In this document: positions 2-56,073 of the stretch, one piece after another
How the letters are laid out: every line of letters begins with the position of its first letter
How positions within the stretch are numbered: the stretch's first letter is position 1
Assembly: GCA_024711005.1 (NCBI GenBank)
Contig: JANJTQ010000182.1
Span: forward strand, 3,294 to 67,293
Origin: Opitutaceae bacterium
GTDB taxonomy: Bacteria; Verrucomicrobiota; Verrucomicrobiia; Opitutales; Opitutaceae
Direction: 5' to 3'
DNA length: 64,000 nt
Position numbers and translations under genes: made by a program
The notes under the pieces: model-generated
Seen by the model: only the letters and a program-made list of their open reading frames with translations
Databases searched by the model: none
Told to the model about the DNA's origin: nothing

Positions 2-3000
2 ATCGATCACACCCATCCCGATCTCGCGGCCAACATGTGGACCAATCCCGGCGAAATCGCCGGCAACAACATCGATGACGACGGCAACGGTTATGTGGAC
101 GACGTGCGCGGATGGGACTTTGTGAACGACGACAATAATCCCATGGACGACAACCGCCATGGCACCCACGTCGCCGGAACCATCGGAGGCGTTGGAGGCA
201 ATTCGCTTGGGGTCGTCGGGGTGAACTGGCAGGTCAGTCTCGTTGGACTCAAGTTCCTCTCCGGAAGCGGCTCCGGAACCCACTCCGATGCGGTGGAAGC
301 CGTCGCCTACGCCACTACGCTCGGCCTCGAACTCACCTCCAATTCCTGGGGCGGCGGAGGCTACTCCCAAGCCCTTTACGACGCCATCGCTGACGCCAAC
401 ACCGCCGGTCGCCTCTTCATCGCCGCCGCCGGGAACTCCTCCCGCAACACCGACACATCGCCCAATTACCCGTCCGGCTACAACCTCCCGAACATCATTG
501 CGGTCGCGGCGACCGATCACGCCGATCAACTCGCCTACTTTTCAAACTATGGAGCATCGACGGTCGATCTGGCCGCTCCTGGCGTTAACACGCTCAGCAC
601 GACACCCGGGGGAACTTACCAGAGCCTCAGCGGCACTTCCATGGCGACCCCACATGTGGCCGGAGCCGCCGCCCTCCTTTGGGCCCACCGCCCGTCTTTG
701 ACCGCAACCGACATCAAATCGGCCCTGCTGGTTTCGGTGGACACAAAAGCCCACCTCTTGACCAAAACGGTCTCGGGGGGACGGCTCAACGTCCACTCCG
801 CTCTCCTTTCCTTGGAAAATCTCCTCGTTTCTCCCAACTCCGGCTGGTCGGTCTCCGTTCCATCGGAAGGCCCCATTCCCTCGACCGGCGCTGCTTACAC
901 GCTACGGAATCTGTCTGACTCGGCCCTCGCATGGACCGCCACGGTCGATGTGCCTTGGGCGCAGCTGACCGTCGCCTCAGGGGTGGTCCAGCCCAATGGC
1001 ACCGCCACCACCACCGTTTCCCTTAATGCGGCCGCTGTGCAGAACCTGCCGACAGGCACCCATTCCGGTAAATTGCGAATCACCGATGTTGCCAGCGGAC
1101 TTATCCACGTCCGTCCGCTCTCTCTGAATATCACGCCTCCGGCAGTCTTCACCTTCGATCTGTCCTCCGATCCAGGTTGGACACGAACCGGTCAATGGGC
1201 ATTCGGCAAGCCCTCCGGGTTGGGTGGTGGTGCTTATGGCAATCCCGATCCCGCGTCGGGATACACAGGGAATAACGTCCTCGGGGTAAACCTGATGGGC
1301 AATTACTCTACCACGCCCGGCGGCCCCCACACCTTGACGGCCGGCCCCTTTAATTTCACCGGATACGCAGCGACCCGTCTCCAATTCCGTCGCTGGCTCA
1401 ATAGCGATTATGAGCCCTACGTATCGGCCAAAGTTGAACTCTCCACCAACGGCACCACTTGGCAGACCCTTTGGGCCAATGGATCAACGTTCGTCACCGA
1501 GTCCGCCTGGAGTCTTCAAGACATCGATTTGGCGGCTTACGCGGACAACAAGCCGTCGGTTTCGATCCGCTGGTCTTACACGATCAACGGCGGCGCCTGG
1601 CCGCTTTCCGGGTGGAACATCGACGACATTGTTATTTTGGGCGCCCCGCCCCAAACCCTCCGCTTCGATGCGGTCGGACCGCTCAACGAGGGAGCCGGTT
1701 CATCGAGTGCCACGCTCAATATCAAACCCGCACCGGCCGAGCCGCTCACCATCCAGTTCACCAGCGGAACGCCGGCCACCGTCGCTTCCCCCGCGTCGAT
1801 CATCGTTCCCGCCGGAGTCTCCTCCGTTGTCGTCCCCCTCTCCATTCTCGACAACACGGCGCTCGATGGCACCCGTACCGTTCTGATCTCTCCGTCCGCT
1901 CCGGGTTACAGCGCCGCACCCCTGTCGCTTACGATCCACGATAACGAGACCGCCACACTGACACTTGAATTGCCTGCGGTAGCGACCGAAGGCTCCACCG
2001 CCGTCGGACGCGTGTCCGTCGACACCGCGCCGACGGGCCCGATCACGGTGACATTGACATCGGATCTTGCCGACGCAGCCACCGTCCCTCCGACCGTCAC
2101 CATCCCAACCGGCGCCACGAGTGCCGATTTCACCCTCTCTTTCCCCGACAACACGAGGATCGAGAACTCTCGCGACGCCACGATCGACGCCAGCGTCACC
2201 GGCTGGATCGGCGCACAAGAAACCGTGTCGGTCGCCGACAATGACCTTCGCGCACTTTCCCTCAGCCTCGTTGGTGTTCTCGCCGAAGGCCGCGGCACGG
2301 TGACCGATGGCGGCACGCTGGCGCTCAGCGGCACGTTAACCACGCCCCTTACCGTCACTCTGGTCAGCTCTGCTCCGGACCAACTCTCTGTCGCGGCCTC
2401 GGTGGTCGTTCCCGCCGGCGCGACCTCCGTCAAGTTCCCGATTTCCCTGCCCGACGACGCGAATCTGGATGGAGCCCAGACAGTCACACTCACCGCCTCG
2501 GAAGCCACTTTTGCATCCGGAGAGACCACCGCGTCAGTGGCGGACAACGATCCCGCCTCGTTTGCCTTCGACACGATCCCTTCGCCGCAATACGTGAACC
2601 AAGCATTCTCGGCGCGGATCGTTGCTCTTGATATCAACGGCGCACCCGCCCTCGGGTTCACCGGTGCGGCCAACCTCAGCGGCACGATCGACGCCACGCC
2701 ATCGTCGCTGCAACCTTCGCAGACCAACGCGTTCGTCGCAGGCGAATGGACCGGTGCCATCACGACTCTGGCCGCGGGTGAAAACTGGACGTTACAGGCC
2801 ACCTACGGCTCGGTCTCCGGTGCATCCAACGCGTTCACCGTGCGCGTGCCCGTGGTGCAAATCGTCAACCTGGCCAACAACGACATCGTCTACGACGCCG
2901 GCACGAATCGCCTCTACGCCAGCACGCCTTCCGGCACCATCGTGCCGATCGACCCGGCGACGGGCGCCCTCGATCCGGCCATCACCATCGCCACCACCCC

Positions 3001-6000
3001 CGCCACCCTGCTCGCCCGCGCCACCGACGGCAGCCGCCTCTGGGTCGCGCACGATGCCAACGCGCAAATCATTCCGGTTTCCCTTCCTGATCTGACGGTG
3101 GGCGCGAGTTTCAACCTCGGCACGGGAAGCTACGGCCAGACTCGAGCCGAAGACATCGTCGCTCTCCCCGGCAGTCCCGACAGCCTGGCTGTTGCCCGCT
3201 ACCGCTCTGGCGTCTCCCCCCGCCACGATGGCGTCAGCGTTTACGTTAACGGTAGTCGACTCACCTCATCGACCCCCAATCATACCGGCAGCAACTCCAT
3301 CGAACCTGGCTCCGCTCCAGGCCGGATTTTCGGTTATAACAACGAGAGCACGGAGTTCGGATCCCGACGCCTTCAGGTGTCGGAAACCGGCATCACCAAT
3401 CTCGATGTCAGATCGGAAATCGCGACTGGCTTCGGTATAACCATCCACGCAAGCGACGATATCGTCGCAGCCAGCAGCGGCCGTATCTACGATGGTGAAT
3501 CCTATCGTATCCTCGCGTCGCTCCCCTATTCCGGACTCGTCCGCCCCGACGCCACCGCCAAGCGCATCTACCTGCTCTCCGACCAAGGCGGCGGTGTGCG
3601 CCGGTTGCGTTCCTACGATACCGACCGTTTCGCCGAAATCGGATCAATCAACGTCTCCGGAGTCTCGGGCACGCCCGGCACCTTGGTCCGCTGGGGCGAA
3701 GCCGGACTGGCCTTCCGCACCCCCACCCAAATTTTCATTCTCAACACCGTCGTCGTCCCCACAGCCGACTCCGCCAACCTTCAAGTCACCCAACTCGCCA
3801 CCCCAACATCTCCCGTGGTCGGAGCGCCGATCAATTATCTGGTCTCCGTACGCAATCTCGGAGGCGGTGATGCCGTTTCCGTGGTGCTCACCGACACCCT
3901 TCCCGCAGGATCAACGTTGGTCGAAGCCGTTGCCAGCCAGGGCTCGGTTGATTCCTCCGTTAGCGGACAGGTCAGCGCCAACATCGGCACGATTGCGGCC
4001 GGCGAGGAAGCCACCCTGCGCCTGCGACTCAGCCTCGCGTCCCCCGGGACCGTCACCCACACCGCCATCGCAACCGCCACCACCGGCGATCCCGACACGT
4101 CCAACAACCAGTCGGTCTCCACCCTCACCGCCTCCGCCCCCGGCACACTCTCCCTGCGACGGCTGTCCATCGGGGCACGTGACATCGCCTATGACAACAT
4201 CACGGATCGCCTGATGGTGACGACGAGCAACACCGCTTCGACGCCCAACTCACTGCTCCGCATCGACCCGGTCACACTCGCCCCGTATTCGGCCGATTAT
4301 CTCGGCGACAATCCGGGCCGACTCAAACTCACCAACGACGGACAATATGCCTATGCCATCCTGAACGGCACATTCGGTCTGGCCCGCGCCCCCATCGTGG
4401 CCGGCACGTCCCCTTTCCTCAATTTCCCCGTCGGTCACACGGGATCGACCTATGGGCTGATGCAAGCATACGATATCGTCCCCGTAAACGGACGTCCCGA
4501 AGCCTTGGCCGTGGCTCGCGACCAAGCGTCCGGCACCGTGGCCATCTATGAAAACGGGATTCAATTAAGCACATCAACAGCCTACTACAACGCAACATCC
4601 GTGCTGGTCGATAGTCCCACTGCCCAGCGTATATATGGCTATAATTCCAACAATACCGGCTTCGATTTTTATCAGCTCAACGTGCTCGCCAATGGCGTAA
4701 GCACGGGAGCCACGAAACAGGACCTTATCGAGTCGTTTAGCGTCAACCGGCTAAAACGCGCCGGAAATCTCATCTATACGAACAACGGCCGCATCATCGA
4801 TCCCGAAGCTCTCACACTCGTCGCCAACTTGGCCATCTCCGGCCCGGTAGAGCCCTCCTTCGACGACGATGTCTTCTACATCCTCGAAGGCTCCACCCTT
4901 CGCGCCTACGACCTCGTCACCCGCCAGCCCCTCGGCACCCTCGCGCTCGGCACCCTCGATGGCACACCCACCAACCTCGTCCGCTGCGGCGGCCGCCATC
5001 TCGCCTTCACCACCAGCACCGGACAGCTTTACGTGCTCGATGCTCCCTCGGTTGTCCCTCCTCCTCCGCTCCGCGTCGTCCTGCCGGCCCGCCTGACTGA
5101 AGGTGTCGGAACCGTCCCCGGTGTTGGCCAGGTGGAAATTCTCCGACCTTCCGACACCGACATCAGCTTCCAGCTTACCACGTCGGCCCCCGACGTGCTT
5201 GATGTCACCCGTAACCTCATCATCCCCGCCGGCCAAACCTCGGTAACCTTCGACGTCACCGTGACCGACAACGCCGGCCTCAACGGCACGCGCTCCGTGG
5301 TCATCACGCCCGCGACCACCGCCACCTATACGCCGAAACCAGCCACCGTGGAGGTCGACGATGACGAGACCGGCACGCTCTCCCTCTCGCTTCCCGACAT
5401 CTTGCTCGAAGGCTCCGGCGTAATCGGCGACATCGCCACCCTCACGCTTTCCGCGGCTCCCATCGCACCCGTGTCCATCGCCCTCTCCTCCTCCGATACC
5501 ACCGAGGTGCAGGTGCCAGCCACGGTCATCCTGCCCGCCGGAGAAACGTCCGTCACGTTCGCCGTCACGTTGCCCGATGACGATCTGCTGGACGGTCCCC
5601 AAGCCGCCACGATCACCGCCGCCGTTCCAGGCTACACAGCCGCCGTCATCGAGGCCCAGGTGCTGGATAATGAGGGAACCACGATCACGCTCACCCTGCC
5701 GGTGTCGGCCACGGAGGGATCTTACGTCTACGCGAATGTCACTCTGCCTGGCAAAGCCGTCTCGCCCGTCACCGTGACTCTCAGTTCCAGTGACACCACC
5801 GAACTCGGAAACGCCACCGGCACCATTCCCGCCGGGCAAAGCTCCGGCAGCTTCTACGTCGGCGGCGTGAATGATACTCTCACCGACGGTGCACAAACCG
5901 TCACGCTCACCGCTTCCTCACCGGGCTTCACCAGTGGCAGCGCCACCATCTCCATCACCGATAACGATGCCGCCACCGCATCCTGGTCCACGATCATCGG

Positions 6001-8488
6001 CTCTCAAACCGCCGGCACCGCGTTCAACGCCACGCTCACTTTTAAGACGATCGATGGACAAACCGCCACGGGCTACAACGGCAACGTGCCCGTCACCGCT
6101 CTGAATGCCGACGGCGCCGCCACGCTGAAAAATGCCCCCATCAATGTCTATGTTTCAGGTGGCGTCAGCACCGCCAGCTACACCGTGCTCACCGCCGGAA
6201 CCGACACCCGGTTGCGTGCCCAGCCCGTCAACTTTGCCGCGGTTGACAGCAATCTCTTCAAGGTAAACCCAGGCCCCGTTGCGGCTCTTCAGGTTGGAAC
6301 CATCCCGGCAACCCAGATCACGGCACAACCGACGACCCTCGCTCTCACCGCGCAGGACGCCTACGGCAACACCGTTACTTCGTTTACCGGCTCGGCCTCG
6401 CTGAGCATCGGCGGCGCGTTCCGCCAGGCAGGCTCGGGTACCCAATCATCCAAGTATCCGCTCCACCCCTACCACGACGAGGATCGCACCCAGATCATCT
6501 ACCTCGCGTCCGAACTCGGAGGAGCCGCCAAGCTGACGGGCGTCGCGCTCAAGGTGACCGCGCCGCTCAATGTCGCGCTGAACAATTGGACGATCCGCAT
6601 CAAGCCCACCGCTGCCGCCAGCTACGCCACCTCCGCCTCCTGGCAAGGATCGGGCTGGACCATCGTCCATCAAGGCACACCGCTGCCTTCAAGTCCCGGC
6701 TGGATCGAGTTCCCGTTCGCAACGCCCTACGACTACAACGGCACCGACAACCTGCTGGTCGATTTCAGCATCAAGAACTCCGGACACCCCAGCACCTACG
6801 GGATGGTCGAGGCAACGACCTCGGCCGACTATCGTGTTATGCACGGTTATGCCGATGGCGCCTACGGCGACCCCCTGAATTGGAACGGTGCCTCCCCGTC
6901 CTATGAACTCAGCACCGTGCGTCCGAACCTTCGTTTCCGCACACAACCGGTTGGCGGCGTCGTCACTCCGGGCAACACGGGCGCCTTCACCGCCGGCGCG
7001 TGGACCGGCCCCGTCACCTTCCTGCAACCGGGCGTCGGCGTTTCCATTCTGGCCACGTCGGGCGTCATCGCTGGGAACTCCAACACACTCGATATCCAAC
7101 TCGCGGCCCCCGTGCTCGCCCCTGAGCCTGCCATCACCGGCGGCACCGCCAATACCCTCGCGTGGACTCCGCCCTCGTTTATCACCGGCACCGCAACCAC
7201 TCAGGTGCAAGCCTCCCCGGAAGACACCTTCGCAGCCCCCGTCACCAGCCCTTGGCTCGACGCAACCACCCACACCGTCTCTCCCTTGACCGAGACCACC
7301 TGGCACTACCGCGCCCGCACCCGGCTGACCGTGCCCTTCACGGACACATGGGAGCAAACCAGCCTGGCAGACTTCTCCACCGGCACGCTCTCGCAGACCT
7401 CCGTGCAAACGAGCCCCGGCAACGTCGTCCTCGCGCTCAACGGCTCCACCTATTTCACGACGGGATCCATTACTTCTCCGCTTATCCAGCCCGCCAATCG
7501 CCAAAGCTGGGGCAAACTCGCCTACGACATCTCCACCCCTAACGGCACCACCCTCACCATCGATGTGCTCGACGGCATCGGCAACCTCCTCGCAGCGGAC
7601 GTGAGTTCAGACATCGATCTCAACCAGTTGCCCGGCGTCAGCGGCCAAATAAACCTGAAGCTCCGCGCCAATCTGCAAACGACCAGCCCATTCCTGACAC
7701 CGAGCCTGCGCGCTTGGACTCTCGGCTGGATCACCCCGCAAAGCCCCGCCATTTACGACAGTGCATGGAGCACCATCCTCACCTCGCTCCAAGACGCCAC
7801 CGCACCGGCGCTTGCGGTCACCTCCTCCGCCAACACCACCACCGCCGCCTACACGCTCACCGGTACAGCCGCGGATGCCAACGGCATTGTCTCCGTGTCC
7901 ATCAACGGACTCACCGCCACCACCGCCGACGGTTACGTAACATGGAACCAGGCCGTGACCCTGCATCCTGGAGCCAATGAATTCTCGCTCGTTGCCTCCG
8001 ATCCGGCCGCTCCCGCCAACACCATCACCACGCCCTTCACCGTCACCTACACACCTCCCGACGTCGATACCGACGGCATGCCCGATGCCTGGGAAGTTGC
8101 GCACGGCCTGGATCCGGAATCCCCCGCCAGCATCAACGGAAGCCTGGGCGACCCCGACAAAGACGGCTTACCCAATCTTCTCGAATACGCCTTCAATCTG
8201 AATCCTTCGCAGCCCGACGCCACGCCGCCCTACTCCACCCAAACCGTCGAGGATCCCGACAGCGGCCACCTCGCGCTCGGGTTCACCTACCGCCGCCTCA
8301 TTCATCCGGGCACGCTCACCTACAGCCTGCTGATTTCATCCAACTTGACCACATGGACCGCGCCCGTTCCCACGCCGGAAGAACTCTCCGTCACGCCCAA
8401 CCCCGACGGTCTCACCGAAACCGTGGTCGTGCGCATCCCGCTGAGTTCCGAACCGGCGTTTGTGCGACTCCAAATCGCAAATCCTTAA
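2..8488 (+). CDS. Giant secreted S8 (subtilisin-like) serine peptidase with Calx-beta/Ig-like repeats, two beta-propeller modules, a DUF11-like domain and a C-terminal D-x-D-x-D-G repeat domain; 5'-truncated by the window edge
   Basis: The frame is open from base 2 (IDHTHPDLAANMW), so the catalytic Asp motif lies just upstream. HGTHVAG, AAGN and GTSMATPHVAG motifs are present. Repeated 'VIPAGxTSVTF' Calx-beta-like units; C-terminal DVDTDGMPDAWE...DPDKDGLPNLLEYA. Confidence 0.92.
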   Translation: MDHTHPDLAANMWTNPGEIAGNNIDDDGNGYVDDVRGWDFVNDDNNPMDDNRHGTHVAGTIGGVGGNSLGVVGVNWQVSLVGLKFLSGSGSGTHSDAVEAVAYATTLGLELTSNSWGGGGYSQALYDAIADANTAGRLFIAAAGNSSRNTDTSPNYPSGYNLPNIIAVAATDHADQLAYFSNYGASTVDLAAPGVNTLSTTPGGTYQSLSGTSMATPHVAGAAALLWAHRPSLTATDIKSALLVSVDTKAHLLTKTVSGGRLNVHSALLSLENLLVSPNSGWSVSVPSEGPIPSTGAAYTLRNLSDSALAWTATVDVPWAQLTVASGVVQPNGTATTTVSLNAAAVQNLPTGTHSGKLRITDVASGLIHVRPLSLNITPPAVFTFDLSSDPGWTRTGQWAFGKPSGLGGGAYGNPDPASGYTGNNVLGVNLMGNYSTTPGGPHTLTAGPFNFTGYAATRLQFRRWLNSDYEPYVSAKVELSTNGTTWQTLWANGSTFVTESAWSLQDIDLAAYADNKPSVSIRWSYTINGGAWPLSGWNIDDIVILGAPPQTLRFDAVGPLNEGAGSSSATLNIKPAPAEPLTIQFTSGTPATVASPASIIVPAGVSSVVVPLSILDNTALDGTRTVLISPSAPGYSAAPLSLTIHDNETATLTLELPAVATEGSTAVGRVSVDTAPTGPITVTLTSDLADAATVPPTVTIPTGATSADFTLSFPDNTRIENSRDATIDASVTGWIGAQETVSVADNDLRALSLSLVGVLAEGRGTVTDGGTLALSGTLTTPLTVTLVSSAPDQLSVAASVVVPAGATSVKFPISLPDDANLDGAQTVTLTASEATFASGETTASVADNDPASFAFDTIPSPQYVNQAFSARIVALDINGAPALGFTGAANLSGTIDATPSSLQPSQTNAFVAGEWTGAITTLAAGENWTLQATYGSVSGASNAFTVRVPVVQIVNLANNDIVYDAGTNRLYASTPSGTIVPIDPATGALDPAITIATTPATLLARATDGSRLWVAHDANAQIIPVSLPDLTVGASFNLGTGSYGQTRAEDIVALPGSPDSLAVARYRSGVSPRHDGVSVYVNGSRLTSSTPNHTGSNSIEPGSAPGRIFGYNNESTEFGSRRLQVSETGITNLDVRSEIATGFGITIHASDDIVAASSGRIYDGESYRILASLPYSGLVRPDATAKRIYLLSDQGGGVRRLRSYDTDRFAEIGSINVSGVSGTPGTLVRWGEAGLAFRTPTQIFILNTVVVPTADSANLQVTQLATPTSPVVGAPINYLVSVRNLGGGDAVSVVLTDTLPAGSTLVEAVASQGSVDSSVSGQVSANIGTIAAGEEATLRLRLSLASPGTVTHTAIATATTGDPDTSNNQSVSTLTASAPGTLSLRRLSIGARDIAYDNITDRLMVTTSNTASTPNSLLRIDPVTLAPYSADYLGDNPGRLKLTNDGQYAYAILNGTFGLARAPIVAGTSPFLNFPVGHTGSTYGLMQAYDIVPVNGRPEALAVARDQASGTVAIYENGIQLSTSTAYYNATSVLVDSPTAQRIYGYNSNNTGFDFYQLNVLANGVSTGATKQDLIESFSVNRLKRAGNLIYTNNGRIIDPEALTLVANLAISGPVEPSFDDDVFYILEGSTLRAYDLVTRQPLGTLALGTLDGTPTNLVRCGGRHLAFTTSTGQLYVLDAPSVVPPPPLRVVLPARLTEGVGTVPGVGQVEILRPSDTDISFQLTTSAPDVLDVTRNLIIPAGQTSVTFDVTVTDNAGLNGTRSVVITPATTATYTPKPATVEVDDDETGTLSLSLPDILLEGSGVIGDIATLTLSAAPIAPVSIALSSSDTTEVQVPATVILPAGETSVTFAVTLPDDDLLDGPQAATITAAVPGYTAAVIEAQVLDNEGTTITLTLPVSATEGSYVYANVTLPGKAVSPVTVTLSSSDTTELGNATGTIPAGQSSGSFYVGGVNDTLTDGAQTVTLTASSPGFTSGSATISITDNDAATASWSTIIGSQTAGTAFNATLTFKTIDGQTATGYNGNVPVTALNADGAATLKNAPINVYVSGGVSTASYTVLTAGTDTRLRAQPVNFAAVDSNLFKVNPGPVAALQVGTIPATQITAQPTTLALTAQDAYGNTVTSFTGSASLSIGGAFRQAGSGTQSSKYPLHPYHDEDRTQIIYLASELGGAAKLTGVALKVTAPLNVALNNWTIRIKPTAAASYATSASWQGSGWTIVHQGTPLPSSPGWIEFPFATPYDYNGTDNLLVDFSIKNSGHPSTYGMVEATTSADYRVMHGYADGAYGDPLNWNGASPSYELSTVRPNLRFRTQPVGGVVTPGNTGAFTAGAWTGPVTFLQPGVGVSILATSGVIAGNSNTLDIQLAAPVLAPEPAITGGTANTLAWTPPSFITGTATTQVQASPEDTFAAPVTSPWLDATTHTVSPLTETTWHYRARTRLTVPFTDTWEQTSLADFSTGTLSQTSVQTSPGNVVLALNGSTYFTTGSITSPLIQPANRQSWGKLAYDISTPNGTTLTIDVLDGIGNLLAADVSSDIDLNQLPGVSGQINLKLRANLQTTSPFLTPSLRAWTLGWITPQSPAIYDSAWSTILTSLQDATAPALAVTSSANTTTAAYTLTGTAADANGIVSVSINGLTATTADGYVTWNQAVTLHPGANEFSLVASDPAAPANTITTPFTVTYTPPDVDTDGMPDAWEVAHGLDPESPASINGSLGDPDKDGLPNLLEYAFNLNPSQPDATPPYSTQTVEDPDSGHLALGFTYRRLIHPGTLTYSLLISSNLTTWTAPVPTPEELSVTPNPDGLTETVVVRIPLSSEPAFVRLQIANP

Positions 8489-8526: not shown

Positions 8527-8547
8527 TTGTCACTTATTAAGTTACAA
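8527..8547. repeat. AT-rich palindromic repeat (family A, TTGTCACTTAWTAAGTGACAA), slightly degenerate copy
   Basis: ttgtcacttattaagttacaa, one mismatch to the other four copies. Confidence 0.8.
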
Positions 8548-8582
8548 AATGACGTCGCAACGAGACGGAGCGCCCAAGCAGG

Positions 8583-8605
8583 TTTGTCACTTAATAAGTG
8601 ACAAA
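8583..8605. repeat. Palindromic repeat family A; overlaps the stop codon of the methyltransferase gene
   Basis: tttgtcacttaataagtgacaaa; on the minus strand it reads FVTY* with TAA at 8591-8593. Confidence 0.9.
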
Positions 8606-9376
8606 ATCGGCTTGTTTCACCCGCCTCTCCAAAACCAGCGTCGTGTCGCTGCCTCTGAAGAACTCGTAGTTGACCGCCACCACTTGCGAACGAATGCCGG
8701 CTGCCGCGAGGTCGGTGCGCAGACGTTCGAGTTCCGCGTACGGTCGCCCATCCGGTCCGCATACCGGATGGATCCGCACCTCGTCCCGGCTCACCCGCAC
8801 CAGTTCGCGACACGCCGCGAGGTGAAACGCATAATCAAACAGCCGTTCGTAAATGAAGAGCAGGTGCGCACACAGCACCACGTCGAAACTCCCATCGGCA
8901 AATGGAAGCCGCGGCAACGCACCGCCCACATAACGGTTGTCCAAAAACCCCGCCTCATAGTCCGCTAAAAACTCCTCCGCCGCAGCACGTCGATCGCGCT
9001 CGGCTTCGTCAATCGAACTGAACGACTTCAGCCGAAAGATCTCCGGCTTCGCCCGCATCTGCGCCACCGTCCGCACATAATCAAGCCGCACATACGCCGC
9101 CAAGGTTTCCGCCCGACATCCATAAAGCGGATCAACCGCGGTCGCCCGGATGCCCAGCCGCGTGGCCGCCGACGTGAAGGACGATGGTCCCGCCGCCACA
9201 TCAAGCACCGAGCGCCCGGGCAACGCTTCAAGATCGAGCGGGAAAAACTGTGTATACTCGGCCAGCGAACGGCCAAAAAATGCGACGGAGGATAATTCAA
9301 ACGAAGACAAAACGCCGGACGCGGCGGAGGTAAAAACCGAAGAAGAAACGGATGAGGGATTCGAAAAAGAGTTCAT
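8591..9376 (-). CDS. Class I SAM-dependent methyltransferase, function unknown
   Basis: SAM motif I 'VLDVAAGPSSF', 'LPRLPFADGSFDVVLCAHLLF', N-terminal 'FFGRSLAEY'. Start placed at ATG 9376, downstream of the leader terminator. Confidence 0.85.
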   Translation of the reverse strand: MNSFSNPSSVSSSVFTSAASGVLSSFELSSVAFFGRSLAEYTQFFPLDLEALPGRSVLDVAAGPSSFTSAATRLGIRATAVDPLYGCRAETLAAYVRLDYVRTVAQMRAKPEIFRLKSFSSIDEAERDRRAAAEEFLADYEAGFLDNRYVGGALPRLPFADGSFDVVLCAHLLFIYERLFDYAFHLAACRELVRVSRDEVRIHPVCGPDGRPYAELERLRTDLAAAGIRSQVVAVNYEFFRGSDTTLVLERRVKQADFVTY

Positions 9377-9419
9377 GACGAAGTGGTGATGGAGTTGTGG
9401 ATACACGCCAAAAGGCATG

Positions 9420-9447
9420 AAAAAACCCGGCTCGATTGAGTCGGGTT
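9420..9447 (-). terminator. Intrinsic terminator in the 5' leader of the methyltransferase (attenuator terminator)
   Basis: Minus strand AACCCGACUC-AAUC-GAGCCGGGUU (one mismatch) running into a 6-U tract, about 45 nt before the ATG. Confidence 0.8.
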
Positions 9448-9487
9448 CGGCGGGTTGGAAAACGATGCGGGCGAACAAACGCGCGCG

Positions 9488-25575: not shown

Positions 25576-25657
25576 CTCTTTCCTCGTTCTCTTAATCTTT
25601 CTCTTTCGTCCGGAACTTCGGATGGGATAAAGAGAAAAATTAAGAGGAAAGAGAAAG
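25576..25657. repeat. Pyrimidine-arm/purine-arm inverted repeat (family B)
   Basis: TCTTTCCTCGTTCTCTTAATCTTTCTCTT ... AAGAGAAAAATTAAGAGGAAAGAGAAAGA. Confidence 0.8.
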
Positions 25658-28735: not shown

Positions 28736-29842
28736 TTGGCAAGGCCGGACCGGACCGCCTTCACTCGTTGCTCCATGCCTTGGTCAACCCCTGTCGCTCC
28801 CCGCGGACGCCGCGCCACGCCCGCCCGACCGGCAGTTTCACACACCCGCTGCCGCACGCTGCTGATCATTGACAATCGGCCGCTCCAGAACGCCGCGTGG
28901 TCGGAGTTTCACGCCGCCCGAAAACGCGCCGAAAAAGCCGCCCGGGATCTTCACCGTCACGAACAAACGGATACGGTCGCCTATCAAGCCTGGCTTCACG
29001 GCACCTTCCCTGTTCTGGTCACCACATTGCGCGAACTGCACGAGCAGGTCACCACGAAGGCCCGGCAGGTCGATTCCGTCCAATGGATGGCCGCCCTGAC
29101 CGGCCGGTCACTCAAGAAGCTCTGGCGCGAACTCAAGGAGCGCGAAGCCAATCCCGGGGCATTCGAAGACGAGCCGGATCCCGGCCCTGACGCAGATTCC
29201 GCCCACCCCCGATCGAGAACCTCTGCCGACGACGATGACTTCGATCCGTTCGGAGACGACTTTTTCAACGGACTTTTTGGCGAAGGACCCGGCGAACCGT
29301 TCACCGGTCCCGGTCGCTCACCTGGTGGATCGCACAACGATGCGGACGAACACTCCGTCCCGAGCCGGCGGCGTCCGGCGCCGCCCACCAACGTCGAAGC
29401 GCGAGACCTCTACCGGCGCCTCGTGCAGCACCTGCACCCGGATCGCGGCGGCGACTGGACGCCGGCGCGTGAACGCCTCTGGCATGAAGTCCAGCAAGCT
29501 TGGGCCGCCCGTGACGTAGACTGGCTCTCCCGCCTCGAAATCGATTGGGAAACCGCCAACGACACCCTCCGCCCCGATTCGTCGCTCAGCCGCCTGAGAC
29601 GCGCCATCGCGGAACTCCACGCCGCCCGACGCGACACCGAACGCAAGCTCCGTGATTACCGCAGGTCATTCGCGTGGCGCTTCACGGATTCGGAGAAAAA
29701 ACGTCCCCAGCTTCACCGGCGTGTGGAGACGGATCTCAACGAAGATCTCATCGCGCTCCAGCGGCAGCTCGCCTACCTCAACGCCACCATCGCCGCCTGG
29801 GAAGCCCTGCAGCCTAAACGCCGCCGCCCCGCCCGCCGCTAA
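28736..29842 (+). CDS. Coiled-coil protein with an internal J-like (HPD) domain; start uncertain
   Basis: 'ARDLYRRLVQHLHPDRGG'; acidic/Gly linker. Confidence 0.7.
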   Translation: MARPDRTAFTRCSMPWSTPVAPRGRRATPARPAVSHTRCRTLLIIDNRPLQNAAWSEFHAARKRAEKAARDLHRHEQTDTVAYQAWLHGTFPVLVTTLRELHEQVTTKARQVDSVQWMAALTGRSLKKLWRELKEREANPGAFEDEPDPGPDADSAHPRSRTSADDDDFDPFGDDFFNGLFGEGPGEPFTGPGRSPGGSHNDADEHSVPSRRRPAPPTNVEARDLYRRLVQHLHPDRGGDWTPARERLWHEVQQAWAARDVDWLSRLEIDWETANDTLRPDSSLSRLRRAIAELHAARRDTERKLRDYRRSFAWRFTDSEKKRPQLHRRVETDLNEDLIALQRQLAYLNATIAAWEALQPKRRRPARR

Positions 29843-29893: not shown

Positions 29894-29918
29894 GTTTGTC
29901 ACTTATTAAGTGACAAAC
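29894..29918. repeat. Palindromic repeat family A
   Basis: gtttgtcacttattaagtgacaaac. Confidence 0.9.
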
Positions 29919-29962: not shown

Positions 29963-30178
29963 TCATTGCGCCGCCTCGCCGACCGAGCACTCATGCCCGA
30001 CGCTGAACACCTCGCCGTGACGCAAGCTGAGGGGATGCACACAACGCCCAAAGCCCGCCCATCGATCCAGATCAAGCGGCTCGAAATGCCGACACCAATC
30101 CCCGCAGCGCTGCACTCCCGCACTCCCCCGATAAGGTACGCGAGAGGCGATGGGATCGGCCCGCTGGTCTTCATTCAT
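29963..30178 (-). CDS. Putative small Cys-rich protein (71 aa)
   Basis: C-G-D-W-C-R-H-F ... G-R-C-V-H-P ... H-E-C, four Cys in a metal-site-like spacing. Confidence 0.5.
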   Translation of the reverse strand: MNEDQRADPIASRVPYRGSAGVQRCGDWCRHFEPLDLDRWAGFGRCVHPLSLRHGEVFSVGHECSVGEAAQ

Positions 30179-30587
30179 CTGGCTCACCGGGAATGGACAA
30201 ACGGCACGCACCGAATGCCTCGCATCAAATCATAGCGCGTCGGACCGCGGGCTGTGTTTATTAAAAGTGAGAAGATAAGCACGGAAAAACCATCACACTA
30301 AGGACATCGAGTCATTCGGGCGATTCACGGATTTGAACAGCGGCTCGTTAATTCTCCTCCTGATGCATTCAAGAATGTTACCTGTCGGGTGCAGAACTCA
30401 CAGGATCTGACGCGATATAATCCGAACAAACGCGCAGCGACGACGACGTGGCGTGTGGTGGATGCCGGCAAGCTGTTCCCAAGTCTTTCGTCCGCAAGAG
30501 CGTTGACTACCCGTCACCTCCCCCATGACGTGCCACACGAGGATTGCCACTCTCCGACAGTATCGCCGTTCCATCATCTCTCACACT

Positions 30588-31103
30588 ATGCCCGGTCGCC
30601 TCCTTTTGTTCTTGGGAATGTTAATCATGATCAGTCTCGGCTATTTCATGTTGAGGAGCTCATCCCGCGTGACGCCTTCAGTCTCCGAAACGGTTTCAGC
30701 TCCCGCCTCGCCCACCAATCCAGACGAAACCGTACAGCCGCGTCCCGTATCCGAAAATGCCACGGCGGACGTGCAGCCACCCGTGCCTACGCACCGCCCC
30801 ACCTCCGTCCGGATCCGCGCCGGCCAGGCGATTCCCGAAATTTTCCCTCATCAAGCCGAGCGAGATATCATCCAAGCTCTCGTGAGCAAGTATGAGGTGC
30901 GTCAGGTGCCGGAAATTGCGAGCTATCTGAGCCACAAGGACGCCACTGTTCGTGAGGCGGCCCGTCTGGGACTGATGCAGTTGGGCTATAGCGAAGCCGT
31001 GCCCTACCTAAAAGCAGCCCTGATCAAAGCTTCGGATGAAGAAGCCGAACAACTTCAGGCTGATATCGAATTCCTATCACTTCCGACCGCAGAGATACGC
31101 TAG
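30588..31103 (+). CDS. Membrane-anchored HEAT-repeat-like protein
   Basis: N-terminal TM helix, Pro/Thr linker, 'LSHKDATVREAARLGLMQLGYSEAVPYL'. Confidence 0.7.
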   Translation: MPGRLLLFLGMLIMISLGYFMLRSSSRVTPSVSETVSAPASPTNPDETVQPRPVSENATADVQPPVPTHRPTSVRIRAGQAIPEIFPHQAERDIIQALVSKYEVRQVPEIASYLSHKDATVREAARLGLMQLGYSEAVPYLKAALIKASDEEAEQLQADIEFLSLPTAEIR

Positions 31104-32128: not shown

Positions 32129-32168
32129 CCTGCGGCCACATTCACCCCAACACACACTTCTTCATACC

Positions 32169-33125: not shown

Positions 33126-33163
33126 ACGGACGTAGTAGAGCCCACAGACTATTCAAACAGCAC

Positions 33164-37870: not shown

Positions 37871-37876
37871 GATTCC

Positions 37877-39898: not shown

Positions 39899-40750
39899 AT
39901 GAAACGTCGAATCAAGACCACGACGGAACGCCTGATCGCCGGCATGCCGGATCCGGACGACTACTTTCGCGGGTTGCGTCGCCCGGCGGACGCCCTGCCG
40001 GACAACGTGCTGCTTTTTACGCGGCGTGACGCCCGTTGGCTCAGACCGACCAGCGTCACGTCGGCCTTTCATCAGCGCTGGGTGTTGATCGTGGCGTTGG
40101 CCGGCCGAGGCACGGTCGTGTTGGACCGAAAACCGTATTCGCTTCGGGCGGGAGAGGTGCTCCTCGTGCCGCCGCTGCATCTACACGCCTATGACAACCT
40201 GGATGGGCGACTGACCTGGCTGTTCACGACCTTTGAGTGGCCGGGTCACACCGCGATGGGTGAGGCGTGGCGCAGCGCACGCCGGCTGGATGCGACGGCG
40301 CGCACGCGGCTCGACGCGTTGATCAAAGAATGGCGCGCGCGCCAGCCGGATGGGTTGCTGGCCGCGGCGCATTTGCTGACGTTGTTGCGCCGGCTGTTTC
40401 CGCGAACGGAGAAACCCCGGCAATCCGAGCCGGCGGCGCAAGGAGGATTGATCGCAGCTGTGCGCGCGGCGGCGGAGGCCGAGCCGACGGGCAAGCTGCG
40501 CGCACTCGCCCGCCGGGTGGGCCTGAGCGAGAGCCACTTGCGGGCACGGTTCAGAAGCGAGGCGGGCATCAGCTTGGGTCGCTACCTGCGGGAATCGCGG
40601 TTACGACAGGCGGCAATCTGGCTGCGCGAGGAAAACATCAGCGTCAAAACGGCGGCCGAGCGGGCCGGCTACCCGGACATTTATGCGTTTAGCCGGGCGT
40701 TTCGACGTTCGCTAGGAGTGCCGCCATCCCAAGTGCGCATCCCTAAATAG
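39899..40750 (+). CDS. AraC-family transcriptional regulator, divergent from the oxidoreductase
   Basis: C-terminal double HTH 'GLSESHLRARF...AGYPDIYAFSRAFRR'. Confidence 0.9.
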   Translation: MKRRIKTTTERLIAGMPDPDDYFRGLRRPADALPDNVLLFTRRDARWLRPTSVTSAFHQRWVLIVALAGRGTVVLDRKPYSLRAGEVLLVPPLHLHAYDNLDGRLTWLFTTFEWPGHTAMGEAWRSARRLDATARTRLDALIKEWRARQPDGLLAAAHLLTLLRRLFPRTEKPRQSEPAAQGGLIAAVRAAAEAEPTGKLRALARRVGLSESHLRARFRSEAGISLGRYLRESRLRQAAIWLREENISVKTAAERAGYPDIYAFSRAFRRSLGVPPSQVRIPK

Positions 40751-40836: not shown

Positions 40837-40871
40837 ATCCAGTTTGTCACTTATTAAGTGACAAACTGGAT
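40837..40871. repeat. Palindromic repeat family A, longest copy
   Basis: atccagtttgtcactta-t-taagtgacaaactggat, perfect 17-bp arms. Confidence 0.92.
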
Positions 40872-40998: not shown

Positions 40999-41253
40999 AT
41001 GAACACCGATCCGCGACTCCAACGTCCGCGTATGCCCCTCACCGAGCTCCCCACCGGGGCGGCTGGTCGCGTATGCGCGTTGGACGGAGCGGCCGACGTC
41101 TGTCAGCGACTCCGCGAAATGGGCTTTTGCGAATCCGCGATCATCCAAAAAATCTCCGGTCACAGCACGCTCCTTTGCCAAGTCTGCGACATGCGAGTCG
41201 CTCTCGGCGAAGGCGTCGCCCGGCATGTCACCGTGGAACTCATCCGCGGCTGA
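40999..41253 (+). CDS. feoA: Ferrous iron transport protein A
   Basis: 'QRLREMGF', SH3-like size, upstream of feoB. Confidence 0.85.
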   Translation: MNTDPRLQRPRMPLTELPTGAAGRVCALDGAADVCQRLREMGFCESAIIQKISGHSTLLCQVCDMRVALGEGVARHVTVELIRG

Positions 41254-41384: not shown

Positions 41385-41654
41385 ATGGCTGATCTCGTCA
41401 CGCTTTCGTCCCTCGCCGTCGGCTCCAGCGCCGTGTTGCGAGAGTTCCCCAAGCAAGGCGTCGCCTTTCTTCGCCTGCGCGAGATGGGCATGCTACCCGG
41501 CACCACGCTCACCCTCGTCCGCACCGCCCCGCTCGGCGACCCGATCGAGATCAAGGTGCGCGGCTACAGCCTCACCCTTCGCAAATCCGAGGCCGATCAC
41601 GTCATGGTCGAGCCGGCCGCCGGCTCGACCATGAAAATGACCAATTTCCAATGA
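41385..41654 (+). CDS. feoA: Ferrous iron transport protein A (second copy)
   Basis: 'RLREMGMLPG...APLGDPIEIKVRGYSLTLRKSEA'. Confidence 0.93.
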   Translation: MADLVTLSSLAVGSSAVLREFPKQGVAFLRLREMGMLPGTTLTLVRTAPLGDPIEIKVRGYSLTLRKSEADHVMVEPAAGSTMKMTNFQ

Positions 41655-53070: not shown

Positions 53071-54747
53071 GTGTCTCCGGATAACGCCAACATCGCCCGT
53101 CACCTCGCCCACATGGCTGCGCGGCAGCCTCACACCCCCGCGCTGAAAATTCCCCGCGGCCGCACCCGCTCGGGCGACATCGACTATCTCTCGCTCTCCT
53201 TCGCCGAACTGGCCGCCGAAGTCGCCGCCTGGCGGGCCACGTTGGTCGCGCGCAACGTGCGCTCCGGCGACCGCGTCCTCGTGATGGTAAAGCCCGGCCT
53301 GCCCCTCATTGCCGCCGCCTTCGCCCTTTTCAGCCACGGCGCCGTACCGGTCGTCATCGACCCTGGCATGGGACGCAAAAGCTTCCTCGCTTGCGTCGAA
53401 CGCTCCGCCCCCCGCGCGCTTCTCGGCATCCCGCTGGCCCGCATCATCAGCCATATTTATCGAAAAGCCTTCCGCTCCGTCGAGGTGCGCATCCCCGCCA
53501 GCAGTTCCCCCACCGCGCGGATGCGCACCGAATCTGCTCCTTCGAACGCAAAACTCCAGATGGTCGAGAGCGCCCCTTCCGATCTCGCCGCCATTCTTTT
53601 CACCTCCGGCTCCACCGGGACACCCAAAGGCGTGCGCTACTCGCACGGCATGTTCAACGCGCAAGTGGAGCTCATCCGCGCCGCCTACAACATCCAGCCC
53701 GGCGAGATCGACCTGCCCATGCTGCCGGTATTCGCCCTGTTTAATCCCGCCCTTGGCATGACCACCATCGTGCCGGAGATCGACCCGAGCCACCCGGCCT
53801 CGGTCGATCCCCAAAAAATCATTCAGGCCATCCGCCAGGAACACGTCACCAGCTCCTTCGGTTCCCCCACCCTCTGGCGCAAGATCGCCGTCCACTGTCA
53901 CCGACATCAGATCGGGTTGCCCACCATGAAACGCGTGCTCTGCGCCGGAGCGCCCGTGCCGCCGGACCTGTGGAGCCTGATGATCCCGGTGCTGCCCAAC
54001 GGCGCCCTCCACAGTCCCTACGGAGCAACCGAATCGCTTCCCGTCAGCACCATCAGCGCCGAGGAAATTCTCGCCGGCCCCGCCGAGGCCGCCCAACACG
54101 GCGCCGGCACGTGCATCGGCCGCCCCCTTCCCGCCAACGAGGTCAGGATCATCGCGCTCACCGACACGCCCATCGCCCACCTCGCCGACACCCGCGAACT
54201 CCCCGTCGGCCAGATCGGCGAAATCATTGTCCGCGGCCCGACCGTGACCCACGCCTACGATGGCCTGCCCGAAGCCACCGCCGCCGCCAAAATCACGAAC
54301 TCCGCAAACGGCGAAATCTGGCACCGCTTGGGCGACGCCGGTTATCTCGATGCCGACGGCCGACTCTGGTTCTGCGGACGCAAAGCCGAGCGCGTCGACA
54401 CCACCGCCGGCCCCCTCCACACCGAACAGGTTGAACCCATTTTCAACGCCCATGCCAACGTACGGCGCTCGGCGCTCATCGGCCTCGGCGAACGCGGACG
54501 CCAACGCCTCGCCGTCGTGATCGAACCGGTCTCCGCCGGGCTGATTCGCACCAGCACCGACTGTCGCCGGTTCGCGCGCGAGTTGCGCGAAATCGCCAAA
54601 CGCTTCCCGCACACCTCGGGGATCAAGCTCTACTATTTCCACGAACGCTTCCCGGTCGACGTACGCCACAACGCCAAAATCCATCGTCTCGCCCTCGCCC
54701 GCTGGGCCGTCACCGCAAAAGGCTACGAATCCGACCCCAAACGCTGA
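53071..54747 (+). CDS. oleC: OleC-like adenylating enzyme (olefin beta-lactone synthetase family)
   Basis: FTSGSTGTPKG, PYGATESLPV, 'GAGTCIG', 'WHRLGDAG', 'FPVDVRHNAKI'. Confidence 0.85.
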   Translation: MSPDNANIARHLAHMAARQPHTPALKIPRGRTRSGDIDYLSLSFAELAAEVAAWRATLVARNVRSGDRVLVMVKPGLPLIAAAFALFSHGAVPVVIDPGMGRKSFLACVERSAPRALLGIPLARIISHIYRKAFRSVEVRIPASSSPTARMRTESAPSNAKLQMVESAPSDLAAILFTSGSTGTPKGVRYSHGMFNAQVELIRAAYNIQPGEIDLPMLPVFALFNPALGMTTIVPEIDPSHPASVDPQKIIQAIRQEHVTSSFGSPTLWRKIAVHCHRHQIGLPTMKRVLCAGAPVPPDLWSLMIPVLPNGALHSPYGATESLPVSTISAEEILAGPAEAAQHGAGTCIGRPLPANEVRIIALTDTPIAHLADTRELPVGQIGEIIVRGPTVTHAYDGLPEATAAAKITNSANGEIWHRLGDAGYLDADGRLWFCGRKAERVDTTAGPLHTEQVEPIFNAHANVRRSALIGLGERGRQRLAVVIEPVSAGLIRTSTDCRRFARELREIAKRFPHTSGIKLYYFHERFPVDVRHNAKIHRLALARWAVTAKGYESDPKR

Positions 54748-54918: not shown

Positions 54919-56073
54919 GTGTCCTCCACGCTTAACAGCACCTCCGCACTCGTCACCGGCGGCACCGGCTTCCTCGGTCGCCGCATCGTCGAGCGACTGC
55001 TTGCGCAAGGCCGTCCCGTCACCGTGCTCGGCCGCACACCCGCGCCCGACCTGGAAGCGCGCGGCGTGCGCTTTATCCGCGCCTCACTCGACGACACCCA
55101 GGCCGTGCAGGCCGCCTGCCGCGGGATAGCAACGGTGTTTCACGTCGCCGCAAAAGTAGGGGTATGGGGGCGCTACGAGGATTTTTATCGCACCAACGTC
55201 CTCGGCACACGCGCACTGCTCGCCGGTTGCCGCGAGCACGGCGTCACCCGTTTCGTCCACACGAGCACGCCCAGCGTAGTGTATAACGGATACGACCTTG
55301 CCGGTGCCGACGAAAGCCTCCCGCTCACCTCCCGTTGCCCCAGCCCGTATCCGTTGACCAAGGCCCTCGCCGAACGCGATGTGCTCGCCGCCAACACGGA
55401 GGCTCTGCGCACGGTGGCCCTTCGTCCCCATCTCATCTGGGGTGCGGGTGATCCGCATCTCGTTCCCCGGGTCCTCGCCCGTGCGCGCGCCGGCCGGCTC
55501 CGCATCATCGGCAAAGGACAAAACCGGGTCGACATGGTCCACGTCGAAAACGCCGTCGATGCCCACCTCGCCGCCGAACTCGCCCTCCTCGACCCCACCG
55601 GACATCGCCCATCCCAACCCGATCCCGCTTGTCACTTAATAAGTGACAAAACTCCGGAAGAGCTTGGATACAAAAAAGTAGATAGGGACAACCCGGGGCC
55701 ATGCGCGGCCGGAAAGGCTTATTTCATCACCAATGGCGAGCCCGTTGTGCTGTGGGATTGGATCAACGGCCTGCTCGTCGGGCTGGGTGAACCGCCGGTA
55801 ACCAAACGTATTCCGCTGGGCGCGGCCTCGGTGATCGGCGCTCTGTGCGAAGCCGCCTGGCGCGTGCAGCCCCTCAAAGGCGAACCACCCATGACCCGCT
55901 TCATCGCCGCCGAACTCGCAAAGGACCACTGGTTCTCCATCGACGCCGCCCGGCGCGATTTAAACTACGTTCCGCGCATCAGCATGGCGGAGGGCACGGC
56001 GGAGCTGATCGCGTCATTGAAGCGGCCTGGTTCCTCCGACCTGAGCACGGCGTCCGCGGGATTCTCAGTGTAA
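54919..56073 (+). CDS. oleD: OleD-like NAD-dependent 3-beta-HSD/epimerase family reductase, with an in-frame repeat insertion
   Basis: TGGTGFLG, HTSTPSV, YPLTK, LRPHLIWG, AGKAYFITNGEP, 'PPMTRF'; directly after oleC. Confidence 0.85.
   Translation: MSSTLNSTSALVTGGTGFLGRRIVERLLAQGRPVTVLGRTPAPDLEARGVRFIRASLDDTQAVQAACRGIATVFHVAAKVGVWGRYEDFYRTNVLGTRALLAGCREHGVTRFVHTSTPSVVYNGYDLAGADESLPLTSRCPSPYPLTKALAERDVLAANTEALRTVALRPHLIWGAGDPHLVPRVLARARAGRLRIIGKGQNRVDMVHVENAVDAHLAAELALLDPTGHRPSQPDPACHLISDKTPEELGYKKVDRDNPGPCAAGKAYFITNGEPVVLWDWINGLLVGLGEPPVTKRIPLGAASVIGALCEAAWRVQPLKGEPPMTRFIAAELAKDHWFSIDAARRDLNYVPRISMAEGTAELIASLKRPGSSDLSTASAGFSV
55629..55649. repeat. Palindromic repeat family A inside the oleD coding sequence
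   Basis: ttgtcacttaataagtgacaa, translated as CHLISDK. Confidence 0.9.

Follow-up and report, generated by a model that had tools for sequence, protein, structure and literature searches.

The DNA analysed here, a 64,000-nucleotide stretch from an Opitutaceae bacterium (GenBank assembly GCA_024711005.1, contig JANJTQ010000182.1, positions 3,294 to 67,293; hereafter the window), carries five copies of a short AT-rich palindrome at or near genes that include a methyltransferase-domain open reading frame (ORF), an AraC-family gene, feoA and an OleD-like reductase gene. Because the window is about 62% GC, the palindrome, at 60-76% AT, is conspicuous. A first-pass annotation had interpreted it as a mobile element resembling a MITE (miniature inverted-repeat transposable element) or a repetitive extragenic palindrome (REP), or alternatively as a binding site for a nucleoid protein or a recombinase. 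We found that the same sequence brackets a small helix-turn-helix (HTH) gene in related bacteria, and for this reason we consider a binding site for the HTH protein the most likely explanation. The palindrome would be the putative operator of a small, lineage-restricted Xre-type protein, amplified genome-wide in one lineage, a reading to which we assign a probability of roughly 55%.

An AT-rich palindrome dispersed in Opitutaceae genomes

The window is 82-85% identical at the nucleotide level to contigs from Rariglobus and from metagenome-assembled genomes (MAGs) of Opitutaceae, and the top named matches of its OleD-like protein are from Opitutaceae and Opitutus. The core of the palindrome is the 21-mer TTGTCACTTAWTAAGTGACAA, which starts at 8527, 8584, 29896, 40844 and 55629 of the window, where no copy is expected by chance; 100 dinucleotide-preserving shuffles of the window gave no match. 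All five copies listed in the first-pass annotation were thereby recovered. Its positions 8583, 29894 and 40837 proved correct as the starts of extended arms, including the perfect 17-nt arms of the third of these (Table 1), and the arms of the copy at 55629 are perfect over 10 nt. Folded as single-stranded DNA (ssDNA), perfect copies gave -7 to -16 kcal/mol (z-scores -6 to -9). Copy 1 folds weakly (-2.8 kcal/mol) and is the left partner of a pair with copy 2, 57 bp apart from centre to centre.

The family extends beyond the window. A scan of species-representative genomes returned at least 108 stretches with an exact match, nearly all from about 25 MAGs of Opitutaceae and other Verrucomicrobiota, with up to 15 loci per genome among the matches listed. 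These 108 related loci (L numbers below denote these and further loci) are MAG fragments and stretches of 8-20 kb that, with the window, make up a sample of about 0.84 Mb around copies; obtained by exact match to TTGTCACTTAWTAAGTGACAA, they are biased towards perfect copies, a bias from which the window and the protein-anchored loci described below are free. We counted 122 exact copies and 13, 5 and 7 copies with one, two and three mismatches, respectively. Conservation fades 2-3 nt beyond the 21-mer, giving a repeated unit of about 24-25 bp. In 121 copies, position -1 is T in 83%, position +1 is A in 85%, and G/C is found at -2/+2 in about 60%, with a flank consensus of CCAGT ahead of TTGTCAC on the left and ACTGG after GTGACAA on the right; farther out we saw only a weak CCCAAnCCnGT-like consensus of about 10 nt and a C-rich composition. 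Some copies carry arm extensions of up to 17-18 nt that are specific to the individual instance.

No flanks common to non-orthologous copies were found and, in the window and the related loci, no solo half-sites, each half-site belonging to a full palindrome. In addition, 24 pairs of copies are spaced 45-105 bp apart, with peaks at 45-47, 53-59 and 64-66 bp, and the spacers are unrelated in sequence. A longer composite element was rejected on these three grounds, and a phage origin was rejected because viral contigs contained no exact copy. Logan contigs of runs X1 and X2 often start or stop at the palindrome (L016:3960-4000; window 55597-55678), where depth heaps up, so the repeat evidently breaks metagenome assemblies. 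Outside the Verrucomicrobiota, an exact palindrome lies about 50 bp upstream of orthologous fic genes in two contigs from Nocardioidaceae MAGs (L001:1-2420 and L094:6200-7440), which carry chaplin and F420 genes; a second, degenerate copy is found some 45 bp from it. Horizontal transfer or a mis-assembled join could account for this occurrence; neither of the two runs that contain the window includes L001.

Genomic contexts were assigned with a codon-usage gene caller trained on the loci, a heuristic of our own. Among the 122 exact copies of the window and the 108 loci, 33 are intragenic, and the neighbouring genes are tandem for 50, divergent for 14 and convergent for 13, a distribution that shows no bias towards gene 3' ends or promoters. 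The proximity to gene 3' ends remarked on in the first-pass annotation therefore does not extend to the family, and within the window itself the copy at 55629 lies in frame inside the OleD-like ORF. Orientation, as defined by the centre base (A or T), was independent of the direction of transcription (25:25 in tandem contexts).

A small HTH gene bracketed by palindromes

In four orthologous loci (L016, L034, L060 and L104), two copies of the palindrome 440-520 bp apart bracket an ORF of about 133 residues. Proteins of this family, about 115-135 residues long, are predicted to consist of a long N-terminal helix, a basic linker and a C-terminal Xre/Cro-type HTH, over which the only match to a curated family was a weak one to a YdaS/Cro-like Pfam entry (E = 0.09). 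The family comprises 94 clusters among 5.8 billion proteins, and its named members belong to Rariglobus, Opitutaceae and other Verrucomicrobiota, save one mislabelled entry; we found no paper describing either the palindrome or the protein family. An AlphaFold (AF2) model (pLDDT 76.5) features the conserved linker RPRKGxTLRPG..TPLW and a four-helix C-terminal domain, whose Foldseek neighbours are HipB, CylR2, the controller protein C.Esp1396I and 434 Cro, all with weak scores (E ~1-3, target TM 0.5-0.6, rmsd 2.5-3 Å). On this model, the protein resembles operator binders that act as dimers.

The HTH gene is syntenic in Opitutaceae, with pdxH as its divergent neighbour and a CxxCxxCC gene downstream, and it occupies different but stable neighbourhoods in other clades. 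This stable synteny indicates that the gene is not itself mobile. The copy upstream of the gene (L016:3441-3461; also in L034, L113, L116, L120, L122 and L123) is asymmetric, TTGTAACTTAATAAGTGACAA, with a GTAAC left arm and a GTGAC right arm that are kept in at least seven genomes; the downstream copy is symmetric. Both sediment metagenomes in which the window organism occurs contain a contig about 84% identical to the HTH gene, at depths of 7.5 and 6.2 compared with 9.8 and 6.6 for the window.

We additionally scanned metagenomes with an alignment of the HTH protein, which yielded 80 loci at 39-80% identity picked regardless of palindromes, and searched for the architecture nTGTnAnnTA-W-TAnnTnACAn, allowing one mismatch at most and requiring an AT content of 50% or more. 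In 84 protein-anchored loci (644 kb), we counted 78 such palindromes within 320 bp of the HTH gene, compared with 25 in the other 596 kb, corresponding to 1.62 and 0.042 per kb and a 38-fold difference in density. Sites within this distance were present in 57 of 90 loci, with preferred offsets of about -28 or -5 relative to the start codon and of +2 to +50 relative to the stop. Several 16-kb loci (L150, L152, L142 and L131 among them) have exactly two copies, both of them at the HTH gene.

Dialects of the palindrome and the recognition helix

OleD orthologues and other loci contain species-specific variants of the palindrome, or dialects, in which both arms are changed (CACTTA/TAAGTG, CACGTA/TACGTG, CATCTA/TAGATG and AACTTA/TAAGTT; Table 1). 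In a set selected as perfect palindromes, 6 of 12 arm pairs have double substitutions and none has a one-sided change. At least ten dialects occur among the sites at the HTH gene, and they appear to follow the start of the predicted recognition helix. Where the helix begins with PRQR, half-sites were of the form ..(C/A)AC. in 37 of 39 loci and TCAAC in none, and where it begins with DRQT or DRQA, half-sites were TCAAC in 15 of 21 loci and CAC in none, both counts being uncorrected for kinship. A helix start of (S/P)RQQ goes with the half-site TCATC. Among close orthologues only, the GTAAC dialect of Rariglobus hedericola GCA_007559335.1 (TTGTAACTTAWTAAGTTACAA) showed no clear covariation with the helix, and the split between PRQR and DRQT/A comes from the broader metagenome set.

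Two HTH paralogues coexist in MAG JAQSWS01. One (L034:193-588) has the helix start PRQRV and the dialect TTGTCACTTA/TTGTAACTTA, and the other (L070:7582-7833) has PKQRL and is surrounded by the dialect AAGTAACCTA, which encodes SNLLGY in the OleD proteins of other genomes.

In-frame copies arise by insertion and persist at orthologous positions

The palindrome has a single open frame on each strand, giving xCHL(I/L)SDK. Copy 5 of the window is read as ...PDPA-CHLISDK-TPEE... within an insertion of about 36 residues, in a loop that measures 6 residues in empty orthologues. Other host ORFs encode UvrA, a MurC-MurB fusion, Fmt, RsmE, TatD, an amidase, an alpha/beta hydrolase, a DinG-like helicase, a P-type ATPase and PabB/TrpE-like enzymes, the last with two copies apiece in L061 and L108. 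These in-ORF copies fall within regions covered by Pfam, the domains spanning the inserts. A word-index search of a protein database for CHLISDK-type peptides gave six candidates, none of them scored.

The OleD loop was compared in 120 homologues that are 68-82% identical to the window protein. One or two palindrome-encoded hexapeptides (including CHLISD, CHLLGD, CHLIDD, CHVLRD, CNPIGY and SNLLGY) were present in 79 of them, the loop was minimal (6 residues, AL-x-G-x-A) in 19, and the remainder had short unrecognisable inserts. A single insert amounts to 8 extra codons. When the DNA was compared, the filled allele L117 exceeded the empty alleles L118 and L119 by about 24-30 bp, which is in essence the palindrome, and no direct duplication of the target was seen. 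This comparison of filled and empty sites, of a kind proposed in the first-pass annotation, gave loops with zero, one or two copies in orthologous proteins and indicates that copies arise as insertions of about 24 bp. In a masked neighbour-joining tree of OleD, empty alleles were scattered among filled ones; this is no more than a hint of repeated gain or precise loss at the loop, because a single 330-residue protein gives low resolution. Stretches of 21 kb around empty OleD alleles contained no such palindrome, so the family is present or absent genome by genome.

Copies are also retained at fixed positions. The window copy at 40844, upstream of feoA, is identical in 28 of 28 positions to its counterpart at L006:5671, in flanks that can barely be aligned, and about ten further sets of orthologous copies with diverged flanks occur in the sample; their apparent perfection is inflated by the exact-match sampling through which the loci were fetched. 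The P-type ATPase gene has one insertion site common to three species and, in a fourth species, a doublet elsewhere in the gene. Fixed positions across relatives, which had been expected to favour a conserved operator over a mobile element, were thus found for the copies in OleD and the ATPase and for those that precede feoA and follow the HTH gene, alongside behaviour like that of a mobile element.

The five copies of the window and neighbouring features

The coordinates of the five copies are given in Table 1. The giant ORF 35..8488(+), of 2817 residues, has its stop 39 bp ahead of the first palindrome. The minus-strand methyltransferase-domain ORF takes its TAA stop from the TTA at 8591-8593 within copy 2, in agreement with the donated stop codon described previously. 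Copy 3 lies 53 bp past the stop of ORF 28736..29842(+) and borders a stretch of lower GC content (~30000-34000; 0.56 compared with ~0.62) that begins directly after it, in whose ORFs the only Pfam match was to a HEAT-repeat protein; this stretch may be a foreign island. Copy 4 lies 93 bp past the AraC-family gene 39899..40750(+) and 134 bp ahead of feoA (40999..41253, +). The OleD-like ORF that hosts copy 5 sits downstream of an AMP-binding OleC-like gene (53071..54747), and its homologues are named 2-alkyl-3-oxoalkanoate reductase in some sources.

Table 1. Palindrome copies in the window, the two ORFs that incorporate palindrome sequence, and dialects in related loci
Feature	Position or locus	Strand	Description
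Copy 1	8527..8547	.	TTGTCACTTATTAAGTTACAA; 1 mismatch in right arm (GTTAC for GTGAC)
Copy 2	8583..8605	.	Perfect 11-nt arms; between convergent 35..8488(+) and 8591..9478(-)
Methyltransferase-domain ORF	8591..9478	-	Final four codons and stop from copy 2: TTT GTC ACT TAT TAA (FVTY, stop)
Copy 3	29894..29918	.	GTTTGTCACTTATTAAGTGACAAAC; perfect 12-nt arms
Copy 4	40837..40871	.	Perfect 17-nt arms
Copy 5	55629..55649	.	Inside OleD-like ORF; translated as CHLISDK
OleD-like NAD-dependent epimerase/3-beta-HSD family reductase	54919..56073	+	Host gene of copy 5
Dialect	L109		TTGTCATCTA-T-TAGATGACAA
Dialect	L110		TTGTCACGTA-W-TACGTGACAA; three copies, one intergenic
Dialect	L112, L117		GTGTCACCTA-T-TAGGTGACAC
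Dialect	L111		TTGTCACCTA
Dialect	L113		TTGTAACTTA-T-TAAGTTACAA; Rariglobus hedericola isolate

Several other features of the window were recorded. Directly upstream of feoA, the block CGCGTTGACACTGAAACTGAGTCTCAGTCATA (40954-40986) is the same in L006 despite diverged intergenic surroundings; it includes TTGACA and the dyad ACTGAGTCTCAGT, for which reason it probably serves as promoter or operator of feoA, perhaps under an iron regulator. Near the 3' end of a second FeoA-domain ORF (41385..41654) lies a 33-bp perfect GC-rich palindrome with 16-nt arms (41602-41634; TCATGGTCGAGCCGGC-C-GCCGGCTCGACCATGA), unrelated in sequence to the AT-rich family. The T/C-rich motif CTCTTTCCTCGTTCTCTTAATCTTTCTC is repeated in intergenic DNA at 25576-25603, 34796-34823, 36304-36331 and 37872-37899, about 100-120 bp upstream of plus-strand genes at 25674, 34942 and 36424, and may be a leader or promoter element. 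An ORF at 44370-44939 has an AbiEii (type IV toxin-antitoxin nucleotidyltransferase) domain.

Discussion

The clustering of palindromes at the HTH gene, their stable offsets and the dialects that accompany its recognition helix are consistent with an HTH protein that binds the palindrome, and either this binding or gene conversion between copies would keep the copies perfect. The ancestral state may have been two sites, one just upstream and one just downstream of the HTH gene, as in an autoregulated local repressor, and most relatives would have retained only these two. In one lineage (Rariglobus, 'Opitutus sp. GAS368' and Oleiharenicola-like bacteria, including the window organism), the site of about 24-25 bp would then have been copied widely, to about one per 10-13 kb. 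Copies would have been tolerated where harmless, in all kinds of intergenic DNA and, through the single stop-free frame xCHL[I/L]SDK, in loops of housekeeping proteins. At orthologous positions they would stay perfect through selection for binding or conversion among copies, and a shift in the specificity of the system would change both arms together and so produce the dialects. The context statistics make a conventional regulon unlikely; a role of the dispersed sites in nucleoid structure or in repressor titration is possible. More tentatively still, and with odds that we put somewhat below even, the HTH protein and its operator may constitute a genome-wide system in which the ~24-bp operator replicates into intergenic DNA and loops of essential enzymes, and the protein and more than 100 sites co-evolve in concert to give the dialects and the orthogonal pairs of paralogue and site; it might serve Verrucomicrobiota as a hitherto undescribed nucleoid-associated or site-titration system.

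Several observations weigh against this interpretation. The HTH gene does not lie in the window, and its presence in the organism is suggested only by the depth-matched metagenome contigs. No palindrome was detectable in 33 of the 90 HTH loci, mostly those of distant homologues of the HRQA type. The two Nocardioidaceae contigs have an exact palindrome upstream of fic and no HTH homologue in the 8 kb analysed. The correlation between helix and dialect is confounded by phylogeny, several dialects coexist within the PRQR class, and one helix substitution (H to S) leaves the site unchanged. Dispersed copies are not enriched at promoters, 27% of them being intragenic and convergent contexts (13) about as frequent as divergent ones (14). 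The centre base correlates with the C-rich side of the flanks (66:27) and with regional GC skew (74:33), which hints at a strand-specific process, linked to single strands or to replication, of the kind seen in HUH-transposase systems. Finally, about 40 bits of invariant sequence are far above what a binding site needs. This degree of identity points to copying rather than to sites that evolved independently, and how a 24-bp palindrome is copied to new sites is left unexplained by an operator as such.

One mechanism that would supply the copying step is a hidden transposase. The palindrome would then be a REP-type element moved as an ssDNA hairpin by a Y1 transposase encoded elsewhere, either a REP-associated tyrosine transposase (RAYT) or an IS200/IS605-like enzyme, and the copies flanking the HTH gene would be two old incidental insertions. 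We judge this to be unlikely, but it is a serious rival because the lack of target duplication, the scattered empty alleles and the association of the centre base with GC skew all recall HUH-type transposition: the alleles fit seamless insertion and excision, the skew is expected of lagging-strand-template transposition, and the perfect copies are predicted to fold into perfect ssDNA hairpins. The intragenic REPs of Opitutus terrae, which occur as singles and dimers, behave likewise (PMC3733652), and one of the genomes with the palindrome has a RAYT. Against it, the flanks lack the GTAG foot, as already pointed out in the first-pass annotation, and equally a CGTC tag. Moreover, in distant relatives the palindrome is confined to the vicinity of the HTH gene and its dialect goes with the helix, a pattern not expected of incidental insertion.

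No transposase or integrase was found among the window ORFs scanned, in line with the absence of a mobilising enzyme noted earlier, and no transposase- or recombinase-like gene family recurs near the copies. A tblastn search of the window and the 108 loci with six RAYT sequences (PMC3733652, supplement 5) gave matches in L076 and L033 only, neither of which adjoins the AT-rich palindrome. L076:1330-1980 is a classical REPtron, in which the RAYT (1399..1875, Y1_Tnp) lies between GC-rich, GTGG-tagged REPs (GGTGGAGCGCGTTGTCCCCAACGCGCT) of a type absent from the window. The AT-rich palindrome occurs at no fewer than 13 loci of the same genome ('Opitutus sp. GAS368' MAG CAMBLN01), in which two palindrome systems thus coexist. 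A RAYT partner was rejected, within this sample of about 0.84 Mb, on account of the limited distribution and of the different REP that flanks the L076 enzyme. In the sample, the idea that copies might flank a RAYT or recombinase gene found no support beyond a single integrase, which is considered below.

A second alternative, which we rate as rather improbable, does without a dedicated protein: the copies of a selfish or neutral palindrome family would owe their perfection and species-specific form to ectopic gene conversion and hairpin-templated (quasipalindrome) correction, and their persistence to the rarity of loss. Nearly all copies are indeed perfect, changes in the arms are always two-sided, the extended arms are those expected of template switching within a hairpin, and doublets with unrelated spacers could stem from conversion tracts that carry donor flank. 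This explanation nevertheless leaves the 38-fold clustering and the fixed offsets at the HTH gene unexplained across homologues that are 40-50% identical, and it offers no account of distant genomes that keep exactly two copies at this gene and none elsewhere.

Far less probable is a core site of a tyrosine recombinase, with inverted arms of 7-9 bp around a 7-bp TTAWTAA crossover like those of dif, pdif or lox, marking module boundaries or invertible or excisable segments. The architecture suits 9-7-9 core sites, and the HTH gene sits between its two sites as a cassette open to inversion or excision would; a Phage_integrase ORF in L001 has its end 113 bp ahead of the palindrome, and the homology between L001 and L094 begins exactly at it. 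However, an integrase adjoins only 1 of about 122 copies and none was seen among the window ORFs scanned, the HTH gene keeps its neighbours within clades, recombination at in-frame copies inside essential genes (MurC-MurB, Fmt, UvrA) would be hazardous, and contig-level data from two metagenomes revealed no rearrangement joints. Least probable of all is a role in RNA, in which the hairpin would terminate transcription in both directions or would stabilise or process mRNA. In its favour, the stem is strong, one copy donates a stop codon and several are found 1-100 bp past stop codons; against it, the stem is AT-rich without a T-run, scanning the copies gave no terminator-like hit or U-tract, an Rfam search returned no family, convergent and divergent contexts are equally common, orientation ignores the direction of transcription, 27% of copies lie within ORFs, and no G-U intermediates were found among the dialects.

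A dispersed operator of the HTH protein would share features with two kinds of protein-bound site. Like autoregulated Xre/Cro repressors and the controller (C) proteins of restriction-modification systems, the HTH protein is small, probably of the dimer type, and has palindromic, often paired sites just ahead of the start codon of its gene; operator and recognition helix vary jointly between lineages in those systems and seem to do so here, and orthogonal pairs of paralogue and site can occur in one genome. Known operators of such proteins are local, with one to few copies, whereas here the site also lies 3' of the gene and in one lineage occurs about once per 10-13 kb, inside ORFs too. Chromosome-organising sites such as parS (bound by ParB), NBS (Noc), SBS (SlmA) and matS (MatP) are conserved palindromes of 13-16 bp or more, each with a dedicated protein, scattered in families of 4 to about 70 sites within a macrodomain and often in coding regions; they are not known to arise by insertion. 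The palindrome resembles them in its conservation and in its scatter through coding and other regions, with a protein partner that is here putative. Of the two readings in the first-pass annotation, protein binding is the better supported, with a small Xre-type HTH protein as the likely partner instead of a recombinase.

The palindrome also behaves in part like mobile palindromes. Like it, REPs are short (20-40 bp) high-copy palindromes with species-specific stems and compensatory changes, found as singles and as dimers whose spacers match in length and not in sequence, and within the same bacterial family they insert in frame into ORFs, including uvrA: O. terrae is the genome richest in intragenic REPs, which are of the GC-rich GTAG type and form dimers of just this kind (Di Nocera et al. 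2013, PMC3733652). As in a REPtron, a gene is flanked by its cognate repeats, with an Xre-like HTH protein in place of the Y1 transposase. The AT-rich palindrome differs from REPs in being perfect within DNA of ~62% GC, with a single-base centre and without a GTAG or CGTC tag, in lacking a bias towards the extragenic DNA downstream of genes, and in that the RAYT found in these genomes serves another, GC-rich REP. Rickettsia palindromic elements (RPEs) likewise insert in frame into conserved genes, add loop peptides and yield filled and empty orthologues; they are, however, proteobacterial, about 100-150 bp long and conserved in their internal sequence, compared with a unit of about 24 bp and unrelated doublet spacers here, and they are not known to have a gene for a cognate DNA-binding protein. 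A MITE was rejected, since the unit of ~24-25 bp falls short of 70-300 bp, has no structure of terminal inverted repeats plus target-site duplication, and has no related insertion sequence. The mobile character first proposed is partly supported by the filled and empty OleD alleles, by ATPase insertion sites that differ between lineages and by the ~40 bits of identity, and not in the specific form of a MITE or classical REP.

Taken together, if the favoured interpretation is correct, a transcription-factor operator has left its locus and multiplied like a mobile element, providing a natural experiment in the co-evolution of one protein with more than 100 targets. Such insertions add 7-40 residues (CHLISDK-type) to housekeeping proteins, and donated stop codons move predicted gene ends. 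The HTH protein would be a candidate nucleoid-associated protein in a phylum that lacks a characterised one, and the cultured Rariglobus hedericola, which has both the HTH gene and the repeats, makes the proposal directly testable.

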